Below are positions 615 through 3,346 of a DNA stretch of 3,346 nucleotides, piece by piece. The notes beneath the pieces are model-generated. The model searched no databases. It saw only the letters and a list, made by a program, of their open reading frames with translations, and was not told where the DNA came from. Each line of letters begins with the position of its first letter. Positions within the stretch are counted from its first letter, which is position 1. The position numbers were made by a program, and so were the translations under genes. The stretch comes from a virus. Taxonomy: Duplodnaviria > Heunggongvirae > Uroviricota > Caudoviricetes. The DNA lies in the IMG/VR virus record IMGVR_UViG_2529292726_000026. One strand, 5' to 3'.

Positions 615-2354
615 GTGCAGCAAGAACCAGTATTGACGGCGAAAAATAGCCAGAATGCAGCAGCCGAAAGCGAGAGCGCGTCAGCCGGTTCTGCGACTGC
701 AGCAGCTGGATCAGCAACTGCTGCGGCTAACAGCCAGAAAGCAGCGAAGACGAGCGAAACTAACGCAAAGTCCAGCCAGACGGCAGCGAAGACCAGCGAA
801 ACAAATGCCAAAGCCAGCGAAACTGCGGCGAAAAGCAGTCAGGATGCAGCAGCCGAAAGCGAGAGTGCTGCAGCTGGTTCTGCAAGTGCGGCGGCTGCTT
901 CTGCCACTGCATCAGCAAACAGTCAAAAAGCTGCAAAAACCAGTGAAACCAATGCAAAGACAAGCGAGACTGCAGCGGCGAACTCGGCGCAAGCATCGGC
1001 AGCAAGCCAGACAGCAGCTAAAGCAAGTGAGGATGCAGCCAGAGAGTATGCAAGCCAGGCAGCAGAGCCGTATAAATATGTCTTACAGCCACTGCCTGAT
1101 GTGTGGATACCGTTTAACGATTCACTGGATATGCTTGCTGGCTTTTCGCCTGGTTATAAGCAAATAACTGTAGGTGATGATGTTATTAAAATGCCATCCG
1201 ATAAGGTTGTTAGCTTCAAACGCGCATCAGGTGCAACATACATTAATAAATCAGGTGTATTAACCGTTGCTGAAGTTGACGAACCGCGATTTGAACGAGA
1301 AGGTTTGCTGATTGAAGGACAGAGAACAAACTATTTCAGAAATTCAAATACACCAGAAGCATGGAATAACACGGGTAGTGTGTCTGTTGAGTCGTTCGAC
1401 AGTGATAAGGGGTTTAACTATGGAAGGATAACTGTTATTAATGAAAATCCGACAGCACAAGGATATCAGGCAATTGCTGTAAACACGAATGATGCTTACA
1501 CCTGCCCGGCAGGTTCTTATACGACGATATCGTGTCTGACGAAAAGTGATAATTCCCGGTGTCGTGCAAGGTTCGGAAAAATGTCTGATAATGGTGCGTT
1601 TGTTTTTCATTCAGATGCAGCTCTGGATCCTGTTACGGGAAATGTTGTTCATGGAAATAATGTGACGGTGACGGCAGAAAGAGTCGGTGAATGGTGGTTG
1701 TTTACCGCCACTCTTTTTGCAGATGCGGAAATGATAATCAGCTCAAGATTTGAAATCCTGGCGATGCCTGGAATCAGTATTATCCCCAATGGCTCTACGT
1801 TAGATATTGCGATGCCTCAGGCGGAGATTGGGTCGTACAGGACGTCATTTATCATTACTGAAGGGGCTCCTGGCACTCGCTCCAGCGACATGGTGACAAT
1901 ACCTGTAAGAAACAATATTCACCGATTACCATTCAGTGCTCTTGTTGAAGTTAATAAAAACTGGGATATCCCTCCCAGCAAATCACCATTAATCTTTAAT
2001 GTTAAAGATTATCAGGAAAATGGTCTGTTCACGCATGGATTCCGTGGTAATAATTTCTCTGATGCCGGTTCTCCTTTTATTTCTATGGGAGGGTGTAATA
2101 AATATGTGGCAACAACCCAGAGGAAAATCATTTCAGGCTTCCGTTGTGGCGCTGATGGAGATGTTCAGGCCGTATGTAATGGTGAATTATCTGTTGCGGC
2201 AAAAACAACATGGACTTCAATTGTTCCACGGGCAGTATTGCGAATTGGAGGGCAGGGCACTAATGGGGAGTATCATCTTTTTGGTCATATCCGTAATCTG
2301 CGTATCTGGCATAAAGAATTAACTGATGCGCAAATGGGGGAGAGTATTAAATGA
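615..2354 (+). CDS. Side tail fibre protein, C-terminal fragment (fibre repeats, then distal receptor-binding region with LamG/ConA-like C-terminus); start codon uncertain
   Basis: Seen: frame 3 is open from upstream of 615 to TGA 2352-2354. Translation from about 640 continues the same repeat family as the first fragment (AKNSQNAAAESES...NSQKAAKTSETNAK). No ATG or convincing Shine-Dalgarno precedes it; GTG 615 is simply the first possible start, 2 nt after the upstream stop. The C-terminal residues (...GEYHLFGHIRNLRIWHKELTDAQMGESIK) resemble the terminal strand motif of LamG/concanavalin-A-like lectin domains (recalled motif, not searched). Confidence 0.7.
   Translation: MQQEPVLTAKNSQNAAAESESASAGSATAAAGSATAAANSQKAAKTSETNAKSSQTAAKTSETNAKASETAAKSSQDAAAESESAAAGSASAAAASATASANSQKAAKTSETNAKTSETAAANSAQASAASQTAAKASEDAAREYASQAAEPYKYVLQPLPDVWIPFNDSLDMLAGFSPGYKQITVGDDVIKMPSDKVVSFKRASGATYINKSGVLTVAEVDEPRFEREGLLIEGQRTNYFRNSNTPEAWNNTGSVSVESFDSDKGFNYGRITVINENPTAQGYQAIAVNTNDAYTCPAGSYTTISCLTKSDNSRCRARFGKMSDNGAFVFHSDAALDPVTGNVVHGNNVTVTAERVGEWWLFTATLFADAEMIISSRFEILAMPGISIIPNGSTLDIAMPQAEIGSYRTSFIITEGAPGTRSSDMVTIPVRNNIHRLPFSALVEVNKNWDIPPSKSPLIFNVKDYQENGLFTHGFRGNNFSDAGSPFISMGGCNKYVATTQRKIISGFRCGADGDVQAVCNGELSVAAKTTWTSIVPRAVLRIGGQGTNGEYHLFGHIRNLRIWHKELTDAQMGESIK
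747..802 (+). repeat. 56-bp direct repeat, copy 2 (55/56 identical to 553-608)
   Basis: Seen: aagacgagcgaaactaacgcaaagtccagccagacggcagcgaagaccagcgaaac. Read in frame 3 it encodes the same peptide as copy 1. Confidence 0.9.
2336..2344 (+). promoter_or_regulatory. Shine-Dalgarno (GGGGGAGAG) for ORF 2351-2632, inside the 3' end of the fibre gene
   Basis: Seen: purine-rich GGAG core at 2339-2342, 8 nt before ATG 2351; the stop and start overlap (ATGA). Confidence 0.6.
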
Positions 2355-2641: not shown

Positions 2642-3346
2642 ATGGCTACATCGACAGTAATTCCAGGAGATATCACCACGCTAAAGGGAGATGTCAGTAA
2701 AACTAAGGAAGATATTTCCTCAATTAACGGAAAAGTATCAACGCTTCAGACTGATATGACCAGTGCAAAGCAGGATATCAGCACCAGATACACAAAAACT
2801 GAAGTTGATAATAAGCTGAAAAACAAACTGGAAGTGAATGCTCTGGAAAGCGGTAATTATGGTGGAGATTTTTACCCGCTGACTGGCCGTGAAGCATTTT
2901 ATTTATGGAATTTGGGCACGACTACAGCGGCGGCAAACCTTTATCTTAATCCTGACCCTGCAATTTCGTCTGTACTGCGGTCAACATCGTCTATTCGCTA
3001 TAAACATTCAGTAGAGACGATAGATTCAGAGCACGCCGATCTCATTTTCAGGATGCGCCCTGTGTGGTACAGGTCGCAATGCGAAAATGACAGGCGTGAC
3101 TGGGGATTCTATGGATTGATTGCCGAGGAAGTAGGAGAAATTGCCCCTCAGTTTGTTCACTGGCGACCAGCTAACGAAGATGATGCACCGGAAACCATTT
3201 CCAGCAATGGCCTTGTTGCCGAAGGTGTAATGTACGAACGTCTGGTTGTTCCACTGATTCACCATATCCAGAAACTGACTGAAAGAGTTGATGAACTTGA
3301 GTCAGAATTAAAGTTGTTATTAACTTCCCGAAGCGATATTAGATAA
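2642..3346 (+). CDS. Tail fibre domain-containing protein with C-terminal peptidase S74 intramolecular chaperone domain (234 aa)
   Basis: Seen: ATG 2642 preceded by GAGGGAGA (2631-2638), which overlaps the upstream stop; open to TAA 3344-3346. The N-terminal ~65 aa are heptad-like and polar (GDITTLKGDVSKTKEDISSINGKVSTLQTDMTSAKQDIS...). The C-terminal ~110 aa (SSIRYKHSVETIDSEHADLIFRMRPVWYRS...GFYGLIAEEVGEIAPQFVH...NGLVAEGVMYERLVVPLIHHIQKLTERVDELESEL) follow the recalled S74 / endosialidase-chaperone pattern, including a Ser-x4-Lys dyad at S116 and K121. Confidence 0.85.
   Translation: MATSTVIPGDITTLKGDVSKTKEDISSINGKVSTLQTDMTSAKQDISTRYTKTEVDNKLKNKLEVNALESGNYGGDFYPLTGREAFYLWNLGTTTAAANLYLNPDPAISSVLRSTSSIRYKHSVETIDSEHADLIFRMRPVWYRSQCENDRRDWGFYGLIAEEVGEIAPQFVHWRPANEDDAPETISSNGLVAEGVMYERLVVPLIHHIQKLTERVDELESELKLLLTSRSDIR
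2987..3316 (+). other. Peptidase S74 (intramolecular chaperone, auto-cleaving) domain within CDS 2642-3346; putative catalytic Ser codon 2987-2989, Lys codon 3002-3004
   Basis: Motif-level comparison to endosialidase C-terminal chaperone domains (catalytic Ser-Lys dyad in an SDRRLK-like context; here SSIRYK), followed by a GLIAQEV-like segment (here GLIAEEVGEIAPQFV) and a C-terminal helix. Domain boundaries are approximate. Confidence 0.7.

Follow-up and report, generated by a model that had tools for sequence, protein, structure and literature searches.

A putative lectin-like module at the end of a lambdoid side-tail-fibre gene of Escherichia coli and its linkage to a small acidic reading frame and a second fibre gene

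The window analyzed here is a stretch of 3346 nucleotides (nt) that corresponds to nt 109–3454 of contig APXK01000151.1 in the draft Escherichia coli assembly GCA_000356245.1, and our subject is the distal module of the tail fibre that it encodes. The window is matched over at least 80% of its length by 111 complete E. coli genomes, the top matches being full-length with 99.0% identity. In those genomes, the locus belongs to a lambdoid prophage and occupies the slot of stf (side tail fibre), right after gpJ and lom; the free phages IdasGreatGrand, PhiR49_1, and PhiR55_1 have an arrangement identical to that of the prophage locus. Four open reading frames (ORFs) lie on the plus strand: 1–612 (203 amino acids, aa), 615–2354 (579 aa), 2351–2632 (93 aa), and 2642–3346 (234 aa). 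The second of them ends in a 427-aa module composed of a conserved neck (nt 1071–1340; module aa 1–90, LPDVWIPFNDSLD ... ATYINKSGVLTVAEVDEPRFEREGLLIEGQRTNY), a hypervariable all-beta domain, D1 (nt 1341–1835; module aa 91–255), and a C-terminal jelly roll of the LamG/pentraxin-like kind, D2 (nt 1836–2354; module aa 256–427). An earlier note, written from the sequence alone, had already placed a LamG-like distal fibre region in ORF 615–2354. The ORF exists and the region lies within it and in its frame; only the first coordinate given, 1070, is one base early, as the in-frame start is at 1071.

The gene for the distal region is real and not a product of chance, since the module belongs to a large family of homologues, with a best E-value of 1e-290 and 2480 clusters (90% identity) at E <= 0.001. 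At 50% identity there are 2226 representatives, and the module nearly always ends a few residues from the C-terminus of its protein. Existing catalogues include the family as phrog_1419 and NF048003, with the annotation tail fibre, and its fold is of a known kind. In the literature searched, neither the module nor the three-gene cassette that it forms with the two downstream ORFs is described, and only general statements on lateral fibres were found. When the 427-aa module was searched directly against PDB sequences, nothing significant emerged (best E 0.13), and the sequence and profile searches of that database returned no solved structure of the module.

The suggestion of a LamG-like end came from the C-terminal sequence EYHLFGHIRNLRIWHKELTDAQMGE, the last-strand motif, which we located at nt 2268–2342, followed by SIK and the stop codon TGA (2352–2354). 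As a matter of sequence similarity, the suggestion holds only below threshold: Pfam Laminin_G_3 (PF13385) matches the window protein with 16.1 bits (E 0.013), short of the curated gathering cut-off of 27.6, at profile positions 93–149 of 151 and module aa 365–421, so that the match falls on the final third of the model, the very motif pointed out in the earlier note. Within the family, 37 of 76 members match at E <= 0.01; the best two reach 27.0 and 26.3 bits, just under the cut-off, and the match of member P0083 spans profile positions 40–149. As a matter of fold, it stands. The AlphaFold2 monomer model of the module is all-beta, with a predicted local distance difference test (pLDDT) score of 78, in which the first ~70 residues are poorly predicted and D1 reaches 86–96. 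D2 is a two-sheet jelly-roll beta-sandwich shared with LamG, pentraxin, and carbohydrate-binding module (CBM) domains, and the fold search assigned it to the LamG/pentraxin/CBM40 type. Foldseek also found this two-domain arrangement in many proteins of uncultured phages that carry the label 'concanavalin A-like'.

A jelly roll can also be the scaffold of an enzyme, and the module might then be a glycoside hydrolase (GH), polysaccharide lyase, or esterase acting on O-antigen or capsule. We consider this very improbable. Catalytic jelly rolls (GH16, GH131, lyases) ranked lower in the fold search, the top structural matches all being non-catalytic binding domains, and no enzyme family was matched in Pfam, NCBIfam, or PHROGs. 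The PDB sequence search likewise placed no enzyme domain on D1 or D2, and its depolymerase and esterase matches align to shaft columns only. No recognisable catalytic domain of a depolymerase tailspike was found, whether beta-helix depolymerase, GH, polysaccharide lyase, or esterase. A simple version of the binding tip proposed earlier would be that the LamG domain alone is the terminal carbohydrate-binding element and folds without a helper, the downstream genes being unrelated. In its favour, D2 has the LamG/pentraxin/CBM40 fold, the module sits at the C-terminal end of its protein, and autonomous folding is general for LamG-type lectin domains. The points that tell against it come from conservation and gene linkage, and are given with them below.

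D1 is homologous to the head spike fibre of a gene transfer agent (GTA). The NCBIfam model NF048003 ('phage head spike fiber domain', GTA_spike_fiber) matches with 66.4 bits (E 4.4e-18, cut-off 36) at nt 1308–1883, that is aa 232–423 of the 579-aa ORF, over positions 1–181 of a 182-position profile. The family profile, searched against PDB sequences, also matches Rcc01080, the head spike fibre of the Rhodobacter capsulatus GTA (RcGTA), from the RAS-ATY motif to the TRA-D motif (E 5e-14), and the second half of the neck aligns with the RcGTA protein from residue 46. The NF048003 match includes the cysteine-containing stretch singled out in the earlier note, YTCPAGSYTTISCLTKSDNSRCRARFG, which is present at nt 1497–1577; its three cysteines, however, are not a conserved motif. 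In the corresponding columns of 74 homologues, Cys145 is not among the four commonest residues, Cys155 is cysteine in 53 of 74, and Cys164 in 36, with V, L, I, A, or F at the last two columns otherwise. Because the cysteines are replaced by such hydrophobic residues in many homologues and are placed in predicted beta strands, the stretch is ordinary core sequence, and a metal-binding or disulfide motif was rejected. Also rejected was a tandem duplication giving rise to D1 and D2, which have no detectable relationship (hhalign probability 0.3%). A strong match of the alignment A1 profile to lambda protein J proved to be an artefact of one chimeric row, P0006, and was gone once that row was removed. 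P0006 itself, a 576-aa protein from a Logan contig, fuses a Phage-tail_3 domain of lambda-J type with the final 290 aa of the module (96% identity) and is probably a chimeric assembly.

Conservation is distributed very unevenly along the module. Across the 74 homologues, mean identity to the window is 79% in the neck, 32% in D1, and 45% in D2, rising to 81% in the last strand of D2 (module aa 401–420). The same picture was obtained from 80 IMG/VR loci fetched with the 93-aa ORF as query, of which 67 have diverged modules: in these the neck is a median of 82% identical (n = 64 where detected), D2 45%, and the small ORF 92%. Of the 79 loci in which sufficient sequence lies upstream, tblastn finds D1 in only 17, and 13 of these 17 are near-identical, while the flanks are 82–92% identical. 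By megablast, DNA similarity to other lambdoids ends at nt 1333–1367. A variable block set between a conserved neck and a conserved 3' end is the mosaic signature of an exchangeable specificity block, and the comparison places this putative block at about nt 1340–2270, between conserved recombination flanks and with D1 as its most variable part. The contrast between the two domains argues against the LamG domain alone being the specificity-bearing tip: D2 is more conserved than D1 (45% versus 32%), and among phages with different D1 alleles its last strand keeps 81% identity, which fits a constant structural role better than a specificity site.

The module is also widespread, occurring in 218 phage records of at least seven lineages, and is among the commonest fibre ends of E. 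coli prophages and coliphages. Three records, MG065655 (Campylobacter phage C2), MG065663, and OR847733 (Listeria phage LM 4-11-1), hold rV5-like or T5-like coliphage fibre genes with the module or the N-terminus of the second fibre; their Campylobacter and Listeria host labels look doubtful, perhaps owing to contaminating coliphage.

Directly after the module lies the acidic 93-aa ORF (2351–2632), whose start codon overlaps the stop codon of the fibre gene (ATGA) and is preceded by a Shine-Dalgarno-like GGGGGAG. Its product has an isoelectric point of 4.3 and belongs to phrog_1361, of unknown function in PHROGs. The ORF has no match at all in Pfam or NCBIfam, no Tfa, gp38, or known chaperone family was matched by it in these two or in PHROGs, and its own family consists of 228 clusters, all 'hypothetical'. 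That no Tfa-like gene follows the fibre, as the earlier note had remarked, was borne out, both downstream ORFs being without a Caudo_TAP or tail-fibre-assembly Pfam match at E <= 1. In each of the ten other genomes sampled, the module is followed by a homologue of the small ORF; these are the lambdoids IdasGreatGrand, PhiR49_1, an E. coli prophage, and Lambda_2E9, and also phA11 and AKFV33 (T5-like), MatMar (Drexlerviridae), KarlBarth (Dhillonvirus), JenP1 (Nonagvirus), and CarlMeissner (rV5-like). In VogelGryff (Seuratvirus), a 91-aa ORF follows the module and was matched by gene order and length only. The end of the module lies within 5 nt of the start of the small ORF in 79 of the 80 IMG/VR loci. 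When one genome of each species was searched with the small ORF, only Escherichia spp. and one mis-binned contig of a metagenome-assembled genome came up. The ORF is a candidate assembly factor or adaptor of the module.

The next gene (2642–3346) encodes a second, short fibre of 234 aa, with the N-terminal peptide MATSTVIPGDITTLK (nt 2642–2686), a coiled coil, and a self-cleaving chaperone domain. The last of these is a Pfam Peptidase_S74 domain (27.2 bits, cut-off 22) that starts at the SSIRYK motif, aa 116 (nt 2987 onward). Predicted cleavage at SSIRYK would leave about 115 aa of the 234-aa protein, an unusually short fibre. The protein matches phrog_3299/454 in PHROGs, and its PDB matches are LtfA of phage DT57C (8hqz_d) and a P22-type needle coiled coil. 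In all 78 loci with enough sequence, a second fibre gene comes next, starting 5–20 nt after the small ORF; 50 of these fibres are of the 234-aa type, and 28 have other distal parts. The N-terminal ~15 residues, M(A/V)TxTxIPxDITxLK, are kept in eight of ten sampled relatives, the rest of the protein being completely different, and this peptide is common to lambdoid, T5-like, T1-like, Dhillonvirus, and Nonagvirus phages. Such linkage is difficult to reconcile with unrelated downstream genes: the 93-aa ORF is translationally coupled and adjoins the module in 79 of 80 loci and in every sampled lineage, and the second fibre gene is next in 78 of 78. Together with the conservation of D2, this makes it unlikely that the LamG domain by itself accounts for the tip.

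While the N-terminus of the second fibre is constant, the first fibres carry lineage-specific N-terminal anchors (PF08400 in lambdoids, T5 pb1 type in T5-like phages), so that the docking site of the second fibre lies most simply within the cassette. Linkage points to the conserved neck, the conserved end of D2, or the 93-aa protein as candidates. Taken further, the module could be mainly a structural connector or hub, comparable to a fibre knee or a baseplate adaptor, with the second fibre attached to it as the sole receptor binder. This seems to us quite improbable, because the D1 alleles are discrete and extremely divergent between conserved flanks, which a mere connector would not need, because D1 is homologous to a capsule-binding protein, and because Lambda_2E9 and rV5-like phages retain the module and the small ORF without such a second fibre. 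From these last genomes it also follows that the tightest link in the cassette is that between the module and the small ORF.

Beyond the second fibre gene, a conserved ORF of 95–97 aa, predicted to encode a membrane protein (MDI(T/S)P.LHALCAVAAQ...), closes the fibre cluster. In the contig of the window and in Lambda_2E9, it is followed on the opposite strand by a sitABCD-type Mn/Fe ABC transporter operon, which resembles prophage cargo (locus L097, 3465–3758 and 4110–6720; locus L008, 5054–8263).

Upstream of the module, the fibre gene is interrupted. ORF 1–612 is a 5' fragment of stf that holds the virion-anchor domain (aa 3–132, nt 7–396) and the start of an Ala/Ser/Thr-rich heptad shaft, and ends at TAA 610–612. 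Its anchor is of the lambda Stf N-terminal type (Pfam PF08400 phage_tail_N, 226.7 bits), and the family profile from alignment A2 matches the N-terminus of lambda Stf (PDB 9e7m_Ta, E 1.5e-10). The remaining shaft (615–1070) consists of 21-nt/42-nt (7-aa) repeats of the KTSETNA type, evident from Tandem Repeats Finder (TRF), from direct repeat families, and from the translation; the TRF arrays of period 21/42 are located between nt 520 and 904. Over nt 330–1060, the 7-aa repeats also form a higher-order unit of ~152 nt that occurs three times (443–594, 637–788, and 826–977), and the length of the shaft varies among relatives (fibres of 673–812 aa), presumably by gain and loss of repeats. In relatives, a single 782-aa ORF encodes the fibre; aligned to NZ_CP019029, the window carries at 606–640 a patch 5 nt longer, which adds the TAA and a frame change, so that the PF08400 anchor (1–612) and the tip (615–2354) sit on separate ORFs.

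The module could therefore be a dead remnant in this genome, the stop and frameshift at 606–640 uncoupling the anchor and leaving no functional side fibre, as in lambda PaPa. We see close to an even chance of this. The TAA and the +2 frame change set the window apart from 111 near-identical genomes, the split genes and the patch itself appear in the public draft record APXK01000151.1, and lambda PaPa is viable despite its frameshifted stf (PMC11990801; PMC9659904). Against it, the patch is unique: not one of its 12-mers occurs in 91 fetched loci, and it is contiguous in none of 5426 complete E. coli genomes. It lies moreover in the 21/42-nt repeat array of a draft assembly, ~700 nt from a contig end, and an assembly or sequencing error is therefore possible. 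Everything downstream is also intact, with 14 substitutions in the 1740 nt of the ORF compared with relatives, nearly all of them within the patch. The patch could be either the mark of a pseudogene or an assembly error.

Starting from the fold class, the homology, the pattern of variability, and the gene linkage, all of which were observed, we consider it on balance probable that the distal 427-aa module (1071–2351) is a lectin-like tip that replaces the Tfa-dependent, gp37-like tip and works with a 93-aa partner and a second fibre. On a trimeric side fibre, the module would be an adhesin of the lectin kind without enzymatic activity. Its reversible binding to a surface polysaccharide (O-antigen or capsule) would hasten primary adsorption, before the outer-membrane receptor is engaged by J; in these phage groups, reversible primary adsorption to O-antigen or capsule has been proposed as the role of lateral fibres (PMC8594841; PMC11990801). 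Specificity would reside mainly in D1 and partly in D2, and the variable block would be swapped as a unit through recombination in its flanks, on one side the conserved neck and on the other the conserved 3' end with the downstream genes. The role of Tfa would probably be filled by the translationally coupled 93-aa protein, as assembly factor or adaptor, and the conserved parts of the module or the 93-aa protein would probably hold the second fibre by its N-terminal peptide, resulting in a fibre with two adhesins. With regard to the earlier note, its interpretation as a whole is partly supported.

Several observations weigh against this explanation. No binding assay or ligand is on record for any module-bearing member, and Laminin_G_3 stays below its cut-off of 27.6 bits both in the window protein (16.1) and in the best family member (27.0). 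Rough E. coli K-12, on which phages can dispense with an adhesin for O-antigen, was the isolation host of many carriers. The motifs QxE and TRxxD are invariant from the coliphages to the GTA protein and could mark a conserved structural or catalytic site and not a variable binding site. Gene order and conservation are the basis on which the second fibre is proposed to dock and the 93-aa protein is given its putative role, and in Lambda_2E9 and the rV5-like phage the module and the small ORF are present but this second fibre is not. Finally, stf is interrupted here, so the module may not reach the virion.

A bolder proposal, which we put forward tentatively as possible but hardly probable, is that the neck-D1-LamG module, the 93-aa partner, and the MxTxTxIPxDITxLK peptide constitute a portable 'fibre-on-fibre' adaptor, in which the 93-aa protein would be a new type of assembly factor or adaptor unrelated to Tfa, gp38, and gp57A. 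If so, fibres ending in the module could carry a second, freely exchangeable receptor-binding fibre, and one cassette would be a universal two-adhesin host-range unit of lambdoid, T5-like, T1-like, Dhillonvirus, Nonagvirus, and Seuratvirus phages. The types of O-antigen or capsule that a siphovirus can get through depend on its side and lateral tail fibres, which are also swapped to retarget phages and phage-derived delivery particles, for which lambda Stf chimeras are already in use. The boundaries of the variable block, at about nt 1340 and 2270, suggest themselves as cut points for such chimeras, and the constructs would probably need the 93-aa gene and not tfa. Should the second fibre dock as supposed, the cassette would be a ready-made way to set two specificities on one fibre.

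Among known systems, the LamG/pentraxin/CBM40 lectins of the Laminin_G_3 clan share the fold of D2, but the sequence similarity is sub-threshold here and the context is a phage fibre tip. Binding of carbohydrates or Ca2+-dependent ligands has no universal sequence motif in this clan, and no ligand or Ca2+ site was identified in the module. Gp46 of Pseudomonas phage Pa193 (PDB 9b45_v) differs in being a myovirus baseplate wedge protein and not a fibre tip, and no sequence-level match to it was found. Closer is Rcc01080 (GhsB) of RcGTA, with which homology spans D1, beginning at the RAS-ATY...PRF...LLIE..TN motif and ending at the TRA-D motif; each of the two is all-beta and lectin-like. Cell binding by tagged Rcc01080 is better in the presence of capsule, and a lectin-like character has been ascribed to its AlphaFold model (PMC10218006). 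It is, however, a 325-aa single-domain fibre whose N-terminal 10 residues plug into the capsid vertex, whereas here the domain ends a trimeric tail fibre, is extended by a LamG domain, and is linked to the 93-aa ORF and a second fibre.

With the Stf/Tfa system of Ur-lambda, the locus shares the slot after J and lom, the PF08400 anchor, and the repeat-rich shaft. The resemblance stops at the tip, as the earlier note had supposed: the distal 427 aa bear no relation to the gp37-like tip of Stf, and ORFs 615–2354, 2351–2632, and 2642–3346 gave no match in Pfam, NCBIfam, or PHROGs to a canonical Stf/gp37 tip with its Tfa/gp38 chaperone. In place of a Tfa/Caudo_TAP gene, the tip is followed by the 93-aa ORF, the 234-aa Peptidase_S74 fibre, and a 97-aa membrane ORF.

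The branched, L-shaped LtfA/LtfB fibres of the T5-like phages DT57C and DT571/2 (PMC4728585) also comprise two adjacent fibre genes, the second without a virion anchor of its own, and ORF 2642–3346 agrees with such a second fibre in having a Peptidase_S74 domain and no PF08400 or T5 pb1-type anchor. Unlike the fibre described here, LtfA of DT57C has no LamG/D1 module and no 93-aa ORF. The region proposed for LtfB docking (LtfA 223–471, phiEco32 gp14-like) has no counterpart in the window-type fibre; when the window fibre, represented by an intact relative, and fibre 1 of AKFV33 were compared with LtfA by blastp, only the anchor and the shaft repeats matched. The peptide MxTxTxIPxDITxLK is likewise unrelated to the LtfB/gp15-type N-terminus. 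In DT57C, the distal half of LtfA sets O-antigen specificity, and Golomidova et al. already list AKFV33 as a phage with two ltf genes (PMC4728585). The second fibres of AKFV33 and phA11 are 44–45% identical to LtfA residues 508–1073 and 43–58% identical to LtfB. In the DT57C locus (4480–7710), this part of LtfA shows homology to the AKFV33/phA11 second fibre from one end to the other, and only the first ~20 residues of that separate fibre have no LtfA counterpart. What is a separate second fibre in AKFV33 and phA11 is therefore fused in frame to the first in DT57C, which suggests fusion or fission of fibre genes at this junction.

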